From: Candidatus Poribacteria bacterium
Lineage (GTDB): Bacteria > Poribacteria > WGA-4E > WGA-3G
Length of the DNA: 64,000 nucleotides
Assembly (NCBI GenBank): GCA_965197475.1
Contig: CBDANF010000003.1
Location: 1,632,001-1,696,000, forward strand
Reading direction: 5' to 3'
Position numbers and translations under genes: made by a program. The notes beneath the pieces are model-generated. The model was not told the origin of the DNA and searched no databases. It saw nothing but the letters and a program-made list of their open reading frames with translations. Positions 28,281-35,381 of this stretch are shown here, in pieces; position 1 is the stretch's first letter, and each line of letters begins with the position of its first letter.

Positions 28281-29939
28281 TTATGGTTTTGCCTTCTTCA
28301 CACAACGAAATCCGAGAATGGATTCCGTTCGATTCGGCAGGTTATAATCGCGATGAAACACGGCTATAAACCTTTTGGCATTGTTCCATGCTCCACCACG
28401 TCTTGCTCGATGCGACAAAATTTCTACGTTTTTGAAATTAGATACAAGTTCGGTAATACTTTTATCCCCCTCAATTGGATTTTTATAGGGAGAATTCATA
28501 TAAAATTGCCAACTTGCACCGTCAAGACACCATTCCGAGACGTTTCCTGACATATCATAGAGGTCATAAGCATTTTCAAGAGATGCACCGACAGGTACGG
28601 TATCACCTATATTACTACTTCGGTAGTTTGCTTGATTAGCATCAATTGAATTGCCCCATGGATAATATTTTCCATTCAAGCCGCCTCGTGCTGCTTTTTC
28701 CCATTCTGCTTCGGTTGGTAGACGTTTGCCTACCCATTTTGCGTAAGCCATCGCAGCATACCAACTTACGTAAGTGACAGGATGATTTGCTTTCCCGTGC
28801 GGATAGTTGTTTCCGTTCCAATCGAATAGATAATCTCCATCGTGAAATTTTTTGTCAATGTTCATTTTTCGCCATTCTGGATTTGCAAGAATAAATTTCT
28901 TATATTGTGCATTGGTCACTTCATATTTGTCCATGTAAAATGCATCAACGTAGACTTTATGCACTGGTATTGTGTCTTTATACGCCCCTTCTCCTTCATA
29001 TCCCATGTTAAATTCGCCAGCAGGAATCAGTACCATCTTATCGTTTTCGACCACATCTACTACACAACGAAATCCGGTATCCGCTTTCGTTTGATTTGCC
29101 GATCTACCGGAACGACTAAATACAGTTATTTCTCTTGGACTACTTATCCAGCCACCCCCACGTGTTACTCGTTGGCCTCGCCACCGAACTGCAGGGAGTA
29201 CATTTTCAAAATTAGATATGACATCTGTAATGCTGTCTGCGCCCGCAATCGGATTATTAAGCGGTCTGCCTCGTGGATATACTTTATAAAAAATATCAAT
29301 ATATTCATCAAGACACAGCTCCGAAACATTTCCTGAAACTTCATGAAGCCCATACCCATTTCCAGGATATGTGCCAATAGGCACAGTATCACCTACAATA
29401 TCATGATCAATACCAATGCGATAGTTTGCCTTATTTTCATCGTTCACATTGCCCCATGGAAAAGGTTGCTCTTTTGTACCGCCTCGCGCTGCCTTTTCCC
29501 ATTCTGCTTCAGTTGGTAAACGTTTCCCTGCCCACTTTGCATAAGCCATCGCTGCATACCAGCTTACATAAGTTACAGGATGATTTTCTTTGTCGGCAGG
29601 ATAATTATTGTCTGTCCAATGGTGTAGATATTTTCCATCGTGAAATTTTTTGTCAATGTTCTTTTTCTGCCACTCTGGATTTGCGAGGATAAACTTTTTA
29701 AATTGCGCGTTAGTTACCTCATATTTGTCTATGTAGAATGCGTCAACATAAACCATGTGTGCAGGTTTTGAAGGTTTTAATACACCAACCTTATCGGATC
29801 CCATCTCAAATTCACCTGGAGGAATTAACACCATATCTTTGGTGTCAGCTTTGCCGTTTTTGGCGGAAAGGCAGTCAGTTGTTGCAACGATAAGAAAGCA
29901 TATCATTATTAATACGAAACGGGAAATTATTTTCATCAT
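28281..29939 (-). CDS. Secreted protein with two tandem FGE-sulfatase/SUMF1 (CLec-fold) domains
   Basis: Signal peptide; two copies of the [35 protein letters not shown] and GFRCV motifs; no catalytic FGE cysteine pair. Confidence 0.9.
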   Translation of the reverse strand: MMKIISRFVLIMICFLIVATTDCLSAKNGKADTKDMVLIPPGEFEMGSDKVGVLKPSKPAHMVYVDAFYIDKYEVTNAQFKKFILANPEWQKKNIDKKFHDGKYLHHWTDNNYPADKENHPVTYVSWYAAMAYAKWAGKRLPTEAEWEKAARGGTKEQPFPWGNVNDENKANYRIGIDHDIVGDTVPIGTYPGNGYGLHEVSGNVSELCLDEYIDIFYKVYPRGRPLNNPIAGADSITDVISNFENVLPAVRWRGQRVTRGGGWISSPREITVFSRSGRSANQTKADTGFRCVVDVVENDKMVLIPAGEFNMGYEGEGAYKDTIPVHKVYVDAFYMDKYEVTNAQYKKFILANPEWRKMNIDKKFHDGDYLFDWNGNNYPHGKANHPVTYVSWYAAMAYAKWVGKRLPTEAEWEKAARGGLNGKYYPWGNSIDANQANYRSSNIGDTVPVGASLENAYDLYDMSGNVSEWCLDGASWQFYMNSPYKNPIEGDKSITELVSNFKNVEILSHRARRGGAWNNAKRFIAVFHRDYNLPNRTESILGFRCVKKAKP

Positions 29940-30083: not shown

Positions 30084-30653
30084 TCAAAGTATAACGGAGT
30101 CGATCATGAAGGCGACTTGGACATCCTTGCCAGATTGTAGACCCCGCATATCCATCGCCATGAACCGGTAAGCAAGTATCATTTCACCTGCTTTATGCCC
30201 ATGTTCACCCATAACACTAATCGGCGCGTGACCATCAAGGCGGGATGTCGCGGTATCTGAAGCCACATCAAAAGTTGTGGGTTCTGTTTCACGAGAGGGT
30301 AACTCTCCGAGTTCTGCTAACGCCTGGTTCAATATCGGTAAAAGCAAGTGAACCCCTCTATTAGTAAGAGGTTGAGACATATCAAAGAGTTCACCGAGCA
30401 CATCTTGTGTCATCGCTTTTCGCAAGTAAATCAATGTAAATAACAACATATCTTCAATCGTATCAAAACAACTATTTCTATATGGGGTATATCTTCGTTT
30501 TTTGCGTTGTTTCCCATCAAGAGTATGTGTATGAACAAACTCTAAAAAACATTTAGAAAAACAAGGGAACAACTCAGAAAACTCTTCTGGCGTATATCCT
30601 GTCAGTGCCAGAAACCTTTTAGGTTTGTCCTTTAATCTTTGATAACTGGCCAT
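30084..30653 (-). mobile_element. Truncated IS5-family-like transposase (HTH_Tnp_4 N-terminus) fused to an unrelated gene fragment
   Basis: FLALTGYTPEEF and LLFTLIYLR..TQ..LGELF.MSQ motifs; no DDE domain follows; tail [18 protein letters not shown] is unrelated. Confidence 0.7.
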
Positions 30654-30885: not shown

Positions 30886-31838
30886 CAGGACTTACGCAAA
30901 ATGAGCAGAGAAGGGACATATTTTATCAAAAAGTCGTTATTTCGGTGTTTTAACCCTAAATCCTACTTATCCGGGGGATTTTTGAACCTATTGCGTAAGT
31001 CATCATCATGTATAAACAATTATTTTTAATCAGGACTTACGCAAATTTGAAGTGGCAGCAAAATTGAGTCTGCATTTCTAAAGAACGCGCAATAAATTGT
31101 GCTACTACAAACACAGAAACGCTTGAAAACAAGCAGAATGCGTAAATCAATAATATATTTTAAAAATTATGTTTGACATTTTTTTGAAAGTTTTGTATAA
31201 TTGTAAACAAGTTCAAGAAATTAGTGTGATGGAACTCTTGACATGGCTTGTCTGCAAAAAAACTTTCGCTTATGTAAAAAATGTGTGCGGTTGTTTTTAG
31301 TGAAGGCAATGGCCACGCGGGTTAAATGTTTTCATTTGCACTCATTCTTTACATGAGAAAAAACTTTTTATCCATTTTAGGCAGATATAAAGGGATTGTT
31401 GTTTGATGGTATCGGGACAGATGCTCAAACATGGCAAAGGATAATGCAAAATACTAATACTAACCGCAATGTTGAAAAAGCGTCCTCAATTAGATTAGGT
31501 CAACACCACAGTTGGTCTATTCCTACTTCTTCCACGCCTTCAGCATCACTCATTTTGCGACCCCCCCCCCCCCACAGTTAACGATTGTAATAGTATTTCA
31601 GTTACAAATAGGCGAATATCGGTTCGGACCATCAGTCTTTTGTCGCGCCCGCACGCTCTCAATTGGACATTGTGAGTTTTGTTGCGGGCTATTTTGTTTG
31701 CAGAAGGTGGGTATTCCCACCCAATATTCATGAACACAACGCACGAGTGTTTTTAGTGTTATTTTAGGAACTCTAACCGTAAACTTAATCAGGACTCACA
31801 TAGATTTGGGTGCCTACTTTTAAAGTGCGTAAGTCCTA
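30886..31838. mobile_element. Non-autonomous composite MITE element with 12-bp target-site duplication
   Basis: Termini CAGGACTTACGCA / TGCGTAAGTCCTA; flanked by ATGAAATAATAT (30874-30885) and ATGAAGTAATAT (31839-31850); the paralogous leader has a single empty site (33424-33435); three internal MITE units at about 30886-31001, 31031-31148 and 31790-31838. Confidence 0.75.
31173..31201 (+). promoter_or_regulatory. Consensus sigma70 promoter inside the composite element
   Basis: Exact TTGACA-N17-TATAAT. Confidence 0.6.
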
Positions 31839-31974
31839 ATGAAGTAATATGTTATTATGGAACACAGATTAGTAAAGATTGGTATGGTAAAATGGGTGCA
31901 GTTTATTCAAACTCACCTACTTAACGCGAAACTCACGTAAAAGTGAGATTCATTTCTATAGGAGGTTTAACGGC

Positions 31975-32655
31975 ATGAAAAATATATTGGTATTAGCAGG
32001 ATTTGTGTTGATGATAGCTTGTTTTGTTATCAGCACGAGCGACATGGCACAGGCGGAGGAAGTCTTGGGAACAGGAACGGCGGCACTGCTCGGAGGAGAC
32101 CTAACCGACCCAGAAGACGATGGTGCTCCTGATTCAGATGACGGTTACAACGCCATTTTCTCAGCCAACGAAGAACCCGGATTCGGGGGTGGGGAATTTG
32201 CGTTTAACGTCTTCGATAACATCCTTGGCGGCGGCAATGCCAAATGGTGCTGAGGACGTGGAGGCGGCTTTCCGGAGGAAGGCCTACACGTGACAGCTGA
32301 GTTTGAGGAGCCGTACGCATTGACACACTTTACCGTATCTTCAGCGAACGATGTTCCTGCAAGGGACCCTACAGTATGGGAGGTTCAGGGGTCGAACGAC
32401 GGCGAAGAGTTTACGACCATCTTTTCTCACGACGGGGCTAGCTTTTGGGATCAGCGACTGCAAGTCGTCCTTTTTGAGGCAGGGGAAGATTACGACGATC
32501 AAAAAATCGGGTATCTGTTTTTTCGGCATGTTACTTTTGCCACCGGGGGGGGCTTTCAAATTGGCGAAATTGAGTACTTCGGCGATGATAGTTATGCCGT
32601 AGACCCTAAAGCCAAGCTTACAACCACATGGGGAAGCATCAAAAACGTCCGATAA
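31975..32655 (+). CDS. Secreted discoidin/F5-8 type C-like protein with in-frame TGA (candidate selenoprotein, Cys-Sec motif)
   Basis: RBS AGGAGG and signal peptide; TGA at 32251-32253 aligns to TGC (Cys) of the paralog at 33836-33838; the frame continues uninterrupted to 32655; SECIS-like hairpin immediately 3'. Confidence 0.7.
32256..32291 (+). promoter_or_regulatory. Putative bacterial SECIS element
   Basis: Stems ACGUG/CACGU, AGGC/GCCU and UUUCC/GGAAG with apical loop GGA starting 20 nt after the UGA. Confidence 0.55.
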
Positions 32656-32723
32656 GTGAAGTGCCATCGATTTTTTAGACCAGAATTTCGTAAAGTTAAG
32701 ATCAAGTGTTCTTTCTCAAATTC

Positions 32724-33218
32724 AATAGGTGTCAAATAGCCTAACGCTGAGCCCTGATCCCGCCGACTGGGGCTAAAGAGTATGTCTTACACCGTTTTCT
32801 GGACACATTCCGCACCGCTGGGGTTGCTACCATTACAAATTAGCACCGTTTTGCTAATACCACACACTAAATTGACGCTTATGGTGTGATTAGGAAACCG
32901 CACCATAGGTGTCAATTTAAGGAATTGAACCAGTTTTTGTGAATGTTTATAGCCCCAGAGGGCGAAAGGTGTATAGACACGCGACTCTACCAAACTCAAG
33001 CCCCAGCGGTGGCAGCATGCGCGTGTGGCATGCTGCATGAGGTGTCCATGTTGTGTGTGATACACCTGTCGCCCCTCCGGGGCTAAAGAGTATGTCTAAC
33101 ACCGTTTTCTGGACACATTCCGCACCGCTGGGGTTGCTACCATTACAAATTAGCACCGTTTTGCTAATACCACACACTAAATTGACGCTTATGGTGTGAT
33201 TAGGAAACCGCACCTACC
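32724..33218. repeat. Mosaic of nested MITE/REP elements with a 136-bp direct repeat
   Basis: Direct repeat at 32769-32904 and 33079-33214 (one mismatch); inverted termini CCATAGGTGTCAATTTA (32903) / TAAATTGACGCTTATGG (33194); hairpin motif at 33011-33048 recurs at 59043-59080. Confidence 0.75.
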
Positions 33219-33559
33219 GGTAAGGAGAAAATAAGAATTACCAAAAGAATAAGTTAATCTTCATATAAGGGGCAGGGGGTTGGAAATTTAGGGATTTCAA
33301 AACATAGTATACTGAAATTACTTACCGAGTCAACCACTAACTAACACAAGTCGTTATGATGATCTAATTCTTTGCGTTGTTTTCTATATTTTTTAAAAAT
33401 AATATTGAATTTTTTATGATAATATGAAATAATATGTTATTATGGAACACAGATTAGTAAAGATTGGTATGGTAAATGAGTGCAGTTTATTCAAACTCAC
33501 GTAACTTAACACGAAACTCACGTAAAAGTGAGATTCATTTCTTTAGGAGGTTTAACGGC

Positions 33560-34243
33560 ATGAAAAATATGTTGGTATTAGCAGGAATTGTGTTGATGAT
33601 AGCCTGTTTTGTTATCAGCACGAGCGACATGGCACAGGCGGAGGAAGTCTTGGGAACAGGAACAGCAGCACTGCTCGGAGGAGACCTAACCGACCCAGAA
33701 GACGATGGTGCTCCTGATTCAGATGAAGGTTACAACGCCATTTTCTCAGCCAACGAAGAACCCGGATTCGGGGGCGGGGAATTTGCGTTTAACGTCTTTG
33801 ATAACATCCTTGGCGGCGGCAATGCCAAATGGTGCTGCGGACGTGGGGGCGGCATTCCGGAGGAAGGTCTACACGTGACAGCTGAGTTTGAGGAGGTGTA
33901 CGGATTGACACACTTCACCGTATCTTCAGCGAACGATGCTGCTGGGAGGGACCCTACAGTGTGGGAGGTTCAGGGGTCGAACGACGGCGAAGAGTTTACG
34001 ACCATCTTTTCTCACGACGGGGCTAGCGTTTGGGATCAGCGACTGCAAGTCATCCGTTTTGATGCAGGGGAAGATTTCGACGTGCAAACCACCGGGTATC
34101 GGTTTTTTCGGCATGTTACTTTTGCCACCGCGGGGGGCTTTCAAATTGGCGAAATTGAGTACTTCGGCGATGATAGTTTTGTCGTAGTAGACCCTAAAGC
34201 CAAGCTCACAACCACATGGGGAAGCATCAAAAACGTCCGATAA
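33560..34243 (+). CDS. Secreted discoidin/F5-8 type C-like protein, Cys-Cys paralog
   Basis: AFNVFDN...KW and SANDAAGRDPTVWEVQGSNDG motifs of discoidin/galactose-binding-like domains; RBS AGGAGG before ATG 33560; C-terminal VDPKAKLTTTWGSIK. Confidence 0.85.
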   Translation: MKNMLVLAGIVLMIACFVISTSDMAQAEEVLGTGTAALLGGDLTDPEDDGAPDSDEGYNAIFSANEEPGFGGGEFAFNVFDNILGGGNAKWCCGRGGGIPEEGLHVTAEFEEVYGLTHFTVSSANDAAGRDPTVWEVQGSNDGEEFTTIFSHDGASVWDQRLQVIRFDAGEDFDVQTTGYRFFRHVTFATAGGFQIGEIEYFGDDSFVVVDPKAKLTTTWGSIKNVR

Positions 34244-34581
34244 GCGCAAATATCGGACATTTTCTAAATCGGCTTGAATCCAGTAATAACTGGGTTTGAG
34301 CCGTTTTTCATATCCGCTTGAAACCGTATGGACTATACTGGGGAGGACCTTTTCGATTATGAACCGCGAAAATCTTCATGCTCATATTGATTATGAGCTT
34401 ATAACAGCGGTTCATCTTGGCGCAAATGCCAGCAAGAAAGCGAAGTCAACAACGAATGCAACGATCGTGAGTCGTGCCGCTGTGGGTAACCTACTCTAAT
34501 ATAGCAAAATAAGCCAAACCTGTCCAAAATGTTTTTACGTTTTTTAGCATTTGATTGTCTCCGATAAGAAGATCATATCCA

Positions 34582-34794
34582 CTATTTTTTCTCTGTAGGA
34601 ATTATAGATGTAATCGTCCATGGAATCTTTTTATAGATATAGGTTGATAACCAGGAGAAGTAAACTATTGTTACAATAGTGGCCGCAATGGTAGTAGTGC
34701 TTCCCTCAAAAAGACGAAAGACCTCAATAAGAATACCAAAAATACTGAAAGCAACAAACCAATAAACATATTTCCATTTTCGGGATATAGACAT
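34582..34794 (-). CDS. Small two-TM membrane protein
   Basis: Two hydrophobic helices; GGAG RBS; paralogous to the N-terminal part of the upstream gene. Confidence 0.55.
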   Translation of the reverse strand: MSISRKWKYVYWFVAFSIFGILIEVFRLFEGSTTTIAATIVTIVYFSWLSTYIYKKIPWTITSIIPTEKK

Positions 34795-34835
34795 ATTACA
34801 TACTCCATTAAACGAATGAGGAACTGTAGTATTAT

Positions 34836-35381
34836 CTAATAAGTTCCTGTTATTTCTGTACTACATACGCGATATAGTATTCCACCTGGCTGCGAACGCC
34901 TAATTTGGTTATGTTTTACTTTGTCCATATGACATTGATAGACATTTTTACTGCAGCCTCTGGTTTCCTCGTCTCCTTTGCATGTATACATGAATCTATG
35001 TCCCCTGCTCGCCAAACTAGATAGATAACGCGATGTCTCGCCACATTGCAAACATTTCCACTTATTTCCCGCTATACGAACTATGTTCCATATACCCCAT
35101 TGCACTTTCCCTTCAATATAAGTCGCGATTCCCGAAACACTGAGTATTGTTACAACAATCGCTGCGGTAGTTGCGATGGGTTCATCAGCAAAAGTTAGGT
35201 AGGTTTTAATGATTTTAATGAGAAAAGCATAAAGTCCGAAAACGGCAAACCAGAAAACATATCGCCATCCAGGATGTATCATAATAGACATATAAGACCC
35301 CATTATGTCAGTAGGACAGTTCCGGAACTGTGTTGACATCCGAAACTGCCCAGACAAGTTACCTTGTTGTGGATTAATCAA
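34836..35381 (-). CDS. Two-TM membrane protein with Cys/His-rich C-terminal domain
   Basis: WRYVFWF...IATYIEGKVQW helices followed by CxxC...H...C...C...CH; true start probably near 35290. Confidence 0.55.
   Translation of the reverse strand: MINPQQGNLSGQFRMSTQFRNCPTDIMGSYMSIMIHPGWRYVFWFAVFGLYAFLIKIIKTYLTFADEPIATTAAIVVTILSVSGIATYIEGKVQWGIWNIVRIAGNKWKCLQCGETSRYLSSLASRGHRFMYTCKGDEETRGCSKNVYQCHMDKVKHNQIRRSQPGGILYRVCSTEITGTY

Follow-up and report, generated by a model that had tools for sequence, protein, structure and literature searches.

Two tandem genes differ at a TGA codon

We analyzed a 64,000-nucleotide stretch of a Candidatus Poribacteria genome (G000:C3:1632001-1696000, hereafter the window; genome 5.7 Mb, 43% G+C), whose owner we take to be a sponge-symbiont bacterium. 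The window carries two near-identical genes in tandem, which are the only copies of their family in the genome: copy 1 reads TGG TGC TGA GGA CGT where copy 2 reads TGG TGC TGC GGA CGT, and the encoded proteins are 90-91% identical. The evidence set out below makes it very probable that copy 1 is a working selenoprotein gene whose UGA is decoded as selenocysteine (Sec, U), and that its product is an exported discoidin/CBM32-like protein in which a Cys-Cys pair has become Cys-Sec. The main features of the pair are these (SECIS, selenocysteine insertion sequence; ORF, open reading frame):

31975..32655, + strand: copy 1, the Sec-form gene; ATG at 31975, TAA at 32653-32655, 226 residues, U at 93
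31975..32055, + strand: predicted signal peptide, residues 1-27, read from the sequence; likely cleavage between AQA and EE
32248..32253, + strand: Cys92-Sec93 codons (TGC TGA) of the motif K-W-C-U-G, from the sequence of copy 1
32254..32291, + strand: SECIS-like hairpin, from folding and fixed synonymous sites
32599..32652, + strand: C-terminal tag VDPKAKLTTTWGSIKNVR, common to 49 ORF ends of the genome
33560..34243, + strand: copy 2, the Cys-form paralog; ATG at 33560, TAA at 34241-34243, 227 residues

The TGA (32251-32253, codon 93) is the sole interruption of copy 1: there are 0 other stops and 0 frameshifts, and 133 codons are intact past it. In copy 2, Cys92-Cys93 are encoded at 33833-33838, with codon 93 at 33836-33838. 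An earlier reading made from the letters alone (the sequence-only reading) had described two near-identical genes with TGA and TGC at one codon, the first of them running on in frame to the shared C-terminus with no other lesion; we recovered the same coordinates and confirmed the intact frame.

The genome encodes the machinery for Sec

That reading had also named selA, selB, selD and tRNA-Sec as the genes to look for, and all four are present: the tRNA-Sec gene lies at C3:3883431-3883524 and adjoins selB (349.8 bits), and selA and selD match at 534.3 and 370.4 bits, respectively. The selD match contains one in-frame TGA. This gene (L011, G000:C3:3099237-3100163) is itself a selenoprotein gene, reading V-K-C-A-G-U, and its hairpin (6 bp, loop CGGGU, 16 nt past the UGA) is similar in geometry to that of copy 1. 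TGA terminates 555 of the 2402 long ORFs of the genome and is therefore an ordinary stop codon in it.

The TGA recurs at the same codon and the sequence past it is constrained

With the Cys copy as query, 38 of 61 related genomes gave matches, many of the full-length ones with exactly one TGA. A script extracted 77 candidate segments, from which 6 unrelated ORFs were dropped, leaving 71 family copies, 26 of which read K-W-C-U. Six broken or partial copies were left out of counts and trees, namely the frameshifted G002_L062 and G028_L061, G015_L060, and the partial G027_L071, G014_L025 and G033_L059. This left 65 intact copies, from 33 species. The equivalent of codon 93 is TGA in 22 of them (20 species) and a Cys codon, TGC or TGT, in 43 (30 species), and all 22 Sec forms run on in frame to the shared C-terminus. 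The question whether the TGA recurs in relatives at this codon is thus answered by 22 intact genes of 20 species.

The Sec forms fall into two types. Type A comprises 10 copies of about 226-231 residues, including that of the window, with W-C-U-G-(R/P)-G-G-G-I-P, although the window copy has F-P where the others read I-P. Type B comprises 12 copies of 225-227 residues with W-C-U-G-(P/F)-A-S-L-P, which form one clade (SH-aLRT support 99). Pairwise Nei-Gojobori estimates of the ratio of nonsynonymous to synonymous substitution rates (dN/dS) are 0.24 past the TGA and 0.22 before it for Sec forms (231 pairs), and 0.18 and 0.15, respectively, for Cys forms. The check on selection proposed with the sequence-only reading therefore came out in its favor, since the low downstream ratio among Sec forms indicates that the sequence past the TGA is translated and constrained across the family.

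Two copies carry a TGA elsewhere. G001_L036 (G001:C3:623242-623934), which we counted as a Cys form, has CC at the usual site and a single in-frame TGA at codon 135; this TGA might be a second Sec site or an error, or the gene a pseudogene. G015_L060 (G015:C170:150716-152009) has TGA at the first Cys codon, giving K-W-U-C-G, together with a second TGA and a frameshift; four database fragments (P0364, P0365, P0366 and P0369) end in ...N-A-K-W, so this variant is not unique to one assembly.

A candidate SECIS hairpin follows the TGA

Folding of the RNA just past the UGA of copy 1 gave a lower stem of 5 bp (32256-32260/32287-32291, ACGUG/CACGU), an upper stem of 8 bp (32266-32273/32277-32284, GGCUUUCC/GGAAGGCC) and the loop GGA (32274-32276), separated from the UGA by 20 nt. 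The minimum free energy (MFE) was -17.3 kcal/mol (z -1.74; 9 of 200 shuffles folded as well), and that of the same 50 nt of the Cys copy was -13.2 (z 0.15; 98 of 200 shuffles as good). We judged the hairpin by the published consensus for bacterial SECIS elements, which the available text of a May 2026 review gives as a loop of 3-9 nt with G in one of its first two positions, an upper stem of 4-16 bp, a distance of 16-37 nt from the UGA and an MFE of at most -7.5 (PMC13188914). The window hairpin fits on all four counts, with its GGA loop, 8-bp stem, 20-nt spacing and MFE of -17.3.

The single hairpin of the window is marginal alone, and it is the comparative data that carry the case. Type A Sec forms share the core hairpin GGCAUUCC-GG(A/C)-GGAAGGCC at a spacing of 20 nt, and type B forms share (A/G)CCUUCC-GGC-GG(A/G)AGG(U/C) at 17 nt. 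Counting codons from the TGA, codon +7 is CCG in 10 of 10 type A Sec forms as compared to 16 of 33 Cys forms of the genus, codon +8 is G(A/C)G in 10 of 10 (GAG in 5 of 33), and codon +10 is GGC in 10 of 10 as compared to 3 of 33. These synonymous sites, fixed in Sec forms and free in Cys forms, are the clearest signal in the alignment of what would be a SECIS element. The mean folding energy of the 24-nt core was -9.1 in type A, -8.9 in type B and -3.2 in Cys forms (Mann-Whitney p 6e-10 for Sec versus Cys forms, a value overstated since the species are kin); 19 of the 22 Sec cores reached -7.5 or lower, and the window Sec copy, at -12.0, was the strongest of all 22, as compared to -5.4 for the window Cys copy. 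Helix pairing held in 83.0% of cells versus 80.6% in shuffles, a level reached by 0 of 500, but only 2 of the 13 stem pairs had changed on both sides. The Cys forms carry a weaker "proto-SECIS" because the peptide I-P-E-E-G-L encodes much of the stem.

Not all of the structure proposed earlier stood. The sequence-only reading had presented the five-bp lower stem as part of the element, and we rejected it as a conserved feature, pair 17-48 being unpaired in 17 of 24 sequences. It had also claimed that the three differences between the copies within 32256-32291 (32262 A/G, 32269 T/A and 32283 C/T) all weaken pairing in the Cys copy. This is right for the two in the upper stem, where U.G becomes an A/G mismatch and G-C becomes G.U, and wrong for the third, which lies in an internal loop of the MFE fold; 32262 counts as a change of A-U to G.U only in the AGGC/GCCU register of that reading.

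The window Sec copy is a mosaic

Between codons -6 and +24, the window Sec copy matches the Sec gene of another species, G012, at 97.8% identity and the neighboring Cys copy at 92.2%. Within the stretch of the TGA and the hairpin, three of the four differences from the neighbor are Sec-typical states (TGA, GGA at +3 and GGC at +10), and the fourth, ATT to TTT (I to F, codon +6), turns a mismatch into a U.G pair. The copy further has K-I at codons +96/+97, where K is found in 9 of 9 type A and 12 of 12 type B Sec forms and 10 of 32 Cys forms, and I in 8 of 9, 11 of 12 and 6 of 32, respectively. These states indicate that the window TGA is not a one-off nonsense change. They are confined to the surroundings of the TGA and codons +96/+97, and over their first 300 nt the two copies share 97% identity, which suggests gene conversion between the neighbors; such conversion would explain why trees place both window copies together. 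Because the Sec copy is a mosaic, we rejected a simple recent duplicate plus one mutation as the origin of the pair. Our further expectation, that the C-terminal half of this copy would cluster with Sec forms, was not borne out by a tree of the downstream columns.

We compared contigs of four sequencing runs with the window at 85% likeness; no public run held more than 0.26 of the sampled words, and what was compared was contigs rather than raw reads of the source strain. In run X1, position 32253 is C in three contigs (depth 2402.4 of 3179.1), and the remainder is a 172-nt contig (32173-32344, 3 differences) that runs across the TGA with the A retained. Two RNA-library runs also keep the A, X15 at depth 21.2 of 286.4, matching a 141-nt contig that spans 32173-32310, and X16 at depth 719.6 of 1662.7; run X4 has only C. 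What these contigs establish is that there are TGA forms elsewhere and in RNA libraries, and no more than that.

The predicted product has a discoidin/CBM32-like fold with a paired CC site

Pfam PF00754 (F5/8 type C) matched the two window proteins at 26.2 and 27.9 bits, just below its cut-off of 28.2; many close homologs have a precomputed match to it, and larger relatives score 30.7-118 bits. A first AlphaFold 2 (AF2) model from a shallow alignment (predicted local distance difference test score, pLDDT, 58.2, and below 50 in the Cys-Sec loop) was replaced by one from a diverse alignment, with pLDDT 87.2 and a predicted template modeling score of 0.79. In Foldseek, the best matches to this model were CBM32 modules (4a41, template modeling score to target 0.74, root-mean-square deviation 3.1 A over 152 columns), and others near the top were the discoidin domain of muskelin, APC10 and an accessory domain of GH92. 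A discoidin/CBM32-like beta-sandwich is thus supported by the model at the level of fold, and the fold named in the sequence-only reading, discoidin/F5-8C, stands at that level.

The module spans about 180 residues (about 28-205) and matches 1064 representative clusters at E <= 0.001, many of them long multidomain proteins with one to three module copies. It includes an extra conserved N-terminal acidic segment, LGTGTxxLLGGDLTDPEDDG. After K-W, the pair is C-C in 173 of 189 domains (150 proteins), gapped in 6 and without Cys at either residue in 10; a single Cys was found in 0 of 189. This all-or-none pattern fits a pair of residues acting as one unit. A weak profile match (E 0.41) to 4lks, the CBM32-3 module of CpGH31, aligned K-W-C-C-G-P with i-W-H-S-A-Y. 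His1671 and Tyr1674 of the 4lks module coordinate galactose, according to the available text of PMC5291390, and we took the H and Y of W-H-S-A-Y to be these two because the three-residue spacing fits. On this alignment, Cys92 would stand in place of the canonical sugar-binding His of CBM32, with Sec93 next to it, on the binding apex. Galactose binding by CBM32 canonically draws on a His, an Arg, an Asn and an aromatic platform, of which the alignment places the His.

The protein is predicted to be exported and bears a C-terminal tag

The N-terminus has an MKN n-region, a hydrophobic h-region and A-x-A (A-Q-A before E-E), conserved in the family, and AF2 places a helix at residues 3-18. Relatives combine the module with bacterial TSP3 repeats, PA14, cadherin-like, dockerin and PEP-CTERM domains, which points to an extracellular setting. 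Copy 1 ends in V-D-P-K-A-K-L-T-T-T-W-G-S-I-K-N-V-R, and the tag is also present in copy 2 (34187-34240). Taken together, the signal-peptide-like N-terminus, the shared tag and the extracellular co-domains of relatives lead us to infer that the protein is secreted.

A tag of the form (V/A)-(E/D)-P-x-x-K-L-(A/T)-T-T-W-(G/A)-x-(I/L/V)-K plus basic residues occurs across the genome: 49 ORF ends in G000 match K-(L/V)-(A/T/S)-T-x-W-(G/A)-x-(I/L/V)-K plus basic residues, and most of these ORFs have signal-peptide-like N-termini. Distant single-domain homologs have a canonical PEP-CTERM (V-P-E-P-S, a hydrophobic helix and R-R-R) at the position of the tag. The tail of copy 1 is without the hydrophobic helix and departs from the PEP-CTERM pattern, and PF07589 had no match in the window proteins at E <= 1. 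The Poribacteria tag looks like a lineage-specific, helix-free replacement of PEP-CTERM, and it may be a lineage-specific sorting signal.

Weighing the explanations

The selenoprotein reading, which began from the alignment of a UGA with Cys, is supported by the machinery, the recurrence of the TGA, selection and the hairpin. In it, the UGA at 32251-32253 would be decoded as Sec by SelB and tRNA-Sec, guided by the stem-loop just downstream, to yield a protein of about 200 residues with a discoidin/CBM32-like beta-sandwich, its Cys-Cys turned into Cys-Sec, which would be exported and then tethered or sorted through its C-terminal tag. Several observations weigh against it. Selenium incorporation and read-through are predictions from the gene sequences. 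The hairpin taken singly, with a z of only -1.74, is marginally better than chance; 3 of the 22 Sec cores are weaker than -7.5 kcal/mol; and the conserved peptide dictates most of the stem. The claim of a SECIS-type hairpin is supported by its fit to the consensus and by the fixed synonymous sites, and is weakened by the unconserved lower stem and by weak covariation (score 0.091 versus 0.086 in shuffles, 77 of 500 scoring as high). Kinship among the species also means that the counts, like the Mann-Whitney p, overstate independence. The nearest rows to the window Sec copy in the downstream-column tree are Cys forms of G020 and G003, and these closest species showed no Sec form. The contigs that keep the A could belong to related species or derive from the source sample itself, and DNA can be present in RNA libraries. 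Finally, the placement of Cys-Sec at the binding-site His depends on a weak profile alignment.

Some of these points bear on a rival reading, in which the family is a real selenoprotein family but copy 1 of the window is recently inactivated or decaying, with its TGA acting as a stop; we consider this quite improbable. Its main support is the downstream dN/dS of 0.68 between copy 1 and copy 2 (dN 0.066, dS 0.096), to which the Cys forms among its nearest tree neighbors and two non-conservative changes peculiar to this copy (I to F, codon +6; R to L, codon +100) can be added. Mosaic gene conversion can raise such a ratio, however, and the I-to-F change improves pairing in what is already the strongest core of the Sec forms; all 133 downstream codons are intact, the TGA stands together with the Sec-specific synonymous codons GGA (+3) and GGC (+10), and run X1 holds a near-identical contig with the TGA. 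That the UGA is not Sec at all strikes us as very improbable: it would be either a stop, leaving a 92-residue peptide and a separate 121-codon ORF that starts with GTG (32290-32655), or be read through by a near-cognate tRNA. The peptide and the separate ORF are just what public gene callers annotate, and of 117 short public relatives 62 stop at ...K-W-C (57 of these have 92 residues) while 27 correspond to the C-terminal part. Yet the downstream piece would have no signal peptide and only half of the beta-sandwich, the frame is kept in every one of the 22 Sec forms with Cys at the codon in 43 paralogs and orthologs, the hairpin keeps the spacing of a SECIS, and the genome has the full Sec machinery. 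A sequencing or assembly error in this genome, which a difference of one base from the neighboring copy might bring to mind, is hardly credible when the same TGA is present in genomes of 20 species and in contigs of three other runs, and is implied by the 62 database fragments that end in KWC.

Within the selenoprotein reading, the Cys-Sec pair, on the ligand-binding apex, would be a reactive centre. Sec normally stands in for Cys where the residue is chemically active, and for this reason, and for the Cys-Sec precedents below, we favor a reactive vicinal pair. By analogy with these, a vicinal selenenylsulfide or selenolate-thiolate that serves redox chemistry or thiol-disulfide exchange with a bound ligand has, in our estimate, somewhat less than an even chance; that the pair would bind a soft metal or metalloid seems to us rather unlikely, and that it forms a purely structural vicinal bridge, unlikely.

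Distribution and origin of the Sec forms

Of 176 genomes from the phylum, 99 have the family. In the 150 of 186 matches that were listed, those with one TGA occurred only in the genus of the window (g1), where they include G108 and G109, entered by TGA count alone. The proteins are also encoded in 60 of 65 genomes of the sister genus (g13), none of which gave a full-length match with TGA, and a more distant family (f4) has Cys forms only; SelA is encoded in 62 of 65 genomes of the sister genus and in 36 of 39 of the window's genus. Two members of the sister genus depart from the usual form, one a 105-residue fragment with a TGA and the other a full-length member (G137:C1:5344447-5345145) with one in-frame TAG. 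The simplest reading of this distribution is that Sec was gained within the window's genus from Cys ancestors, and the tree needs at least 8 changes between Cys and Sec, only 2 of them forced by well-supported branches. Sec forms would thus have arisen in one genus of Poribacteria, probably eased by I-P-E-E-G-L already encoding most of the hairpin.

Cys and Sec paralogs stand in tandem in the window and in G017, G034, G028 and G014. Since this arrangement is found in several species, the idea that the Cys copy would serve as a backup in selenium scarcity is plausible. The side-by-side paralogs, with a sister genus that has selA and only Cys forms, would offer a natural experiment on the gain of a Sec codon and its SECIS.

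We put forward one broader proposal as a tentative possibility: that Cys-Sec in the ligand pocket of an exported lectin-fold protein forms an extracellular reactive site, for covalent or redox capture from the sponge matrix or for binding of a soft metal or metalloid, through a recent gain of Sec from Cys in one genus on a "pre-SECIS" supplied by I-P-E-E-G-L. If true, the "pre-SECIS" route would allow repeated switching between Cys and Sec.

Relation to known selenoproteins and to CBM32 modules

The majority of the prokaryotic selenoproteins known so far are redox enzymes with either a thioredoxin fold or a metal cofactor. Table 1 of the May 2026 review lists 119 prokaryotic selenoprotein families and subfamilies, with no discoidin, F5/8C, CBM32 or PF00754 family among them (PMC13188914). 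Supplements aside, the words "discoidin", "carbohydrate", "secreted" and "signal peptide" are absent from this review and from the deep-Sep paper (PMC12013277), as is "Poribacteria" from the former. Full-text searches on selenoproteins in Poribacteria, which gave a paper on hydrogenases, and on bacterial selenocysteine with discoidin yielded nothing relevant by title or abstract, and NCBIfam has no family for either window protein. The suggestion that the fold is absent from described selenoprotein families is consistent with the 119-family table and with the NCBIfam result. This therefore appears to be an undescribed selenoprotein family with a standard decoding mechanism, which stands out for its fold, for where it is located and for an origin that is recent and confined to one lineage. 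It would add an exported lectin-fold protein with vicinal Cys-Sec and so widen the known settings of selenium chemistry.

Predicted bacterial selenoproteins with a CU motif, several of which would handle metals, are among the closest likenesses; the available text of the review describes the 2Fe-2S-binding family of Csac_0668, the MerB-like SaoL, HgcA, SaoC, MbdU and KCU-star/DUF466 (PMC13188914). As described there, they share with the window protein a Sec right after Cys, Cys-Cys homologs, a SECIS within the coding region and SelA/SelB/SelD; unlike them, the window protein has a discoidin/CBM32 fold, predicted export and its K-W-C-U-G loop in a lectin-like domain.

Mammalian thioredoxin reductase also has vicinal Cys-Sec-Gly: its C-terminal Gly-Cys-Sec-Gly redox centre can form an eight-membered selenenylsulfide ring. 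In that cytosolic flavoenzyme the motif sits at the very C-terminal end and receives electrons from an internal dithiol, whereas in the window protein it is internal, in a predicted secreted, non-flavin lectin fold.

With CBM32 modules such as CpGH89 CBM32-5 (4a41) and CpGH31 CBM32-3 (4lks), the protein shares the beta-sandwich and D-x-x-x-x-W before the apex loop; it differs in the acidic segment at its N-terminus and in having Cys92 where, in the weak alignment above, His1671 of 4lks aligns. Also close are the Cys-Cys relatives of Poribacteria and other phyla, which have the same architecture, are 70-91% identical and often stand in tandem with Sec forms, and which differ in having TGC or TGT, relaxed synonymous sites in the hairpin region and weaker hairpins.

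In public records, Cys-Cys relatives are named "discoidin domain-containing protein" or "PEP-CTERM sorting domain-containing protein", and the pieces of split Sec forms "hypothetical protein", the C-terminal piece having 116-122 residues and starting with M-T-A-E-F. Dozens of records split the genes into two hypothetical proteins in this way, so annotation pipelines miss the family.

Leaders, spacer repeats and neighboring genes

The remaining features of the locus lie upstream of the Sec gene and between the two genes:

31839..31974, + strand: conserved leader preceding the Sec gene; AGGAGG ribosome-binding site, 8 nt ahead of the ATG
32769..32904, strand not assigned: dispersed 136-nt repeat, copy a, in the spacer between both genes
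33079..33214, strand not assigned: dispersed 136-nt repeat, copy b, 99% identical to copy a

The leader (136 nt) shares 95% identity with 33424-33559, the stretch that precedes the Cys copy, and a small hairpin (CUCACGUAAAAGUGAG) lies inside both. A scan of 31000-35000 against Rfam (E <= 1) gave one chance miRNA match and nothing else; neither the leaders nor the spacer repeat matched an Rfam family.

The neighboring genes (an FGE-sulfatase-like gene, a transposase fragment, pdxH and trkHA) gave no functional clue to the pair. Just upstream of it, on the minus strand, 28281-29939 encodes a 552-residue protein with two FGE-sulfatase (formylglycine-generating-enzyme-like) domains, and adjoining this gene, on the same strand, 30084-30653 encodes a 189-residue remnant with only the HTH_Tnp_4 part of a DDE transposase. 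About 19 more partial copies of the spacer repeat, 76-92% identical, are scattered across contigs C2 and C3, and the repeat may represent either a small mobile element or an element that acts as RNA.

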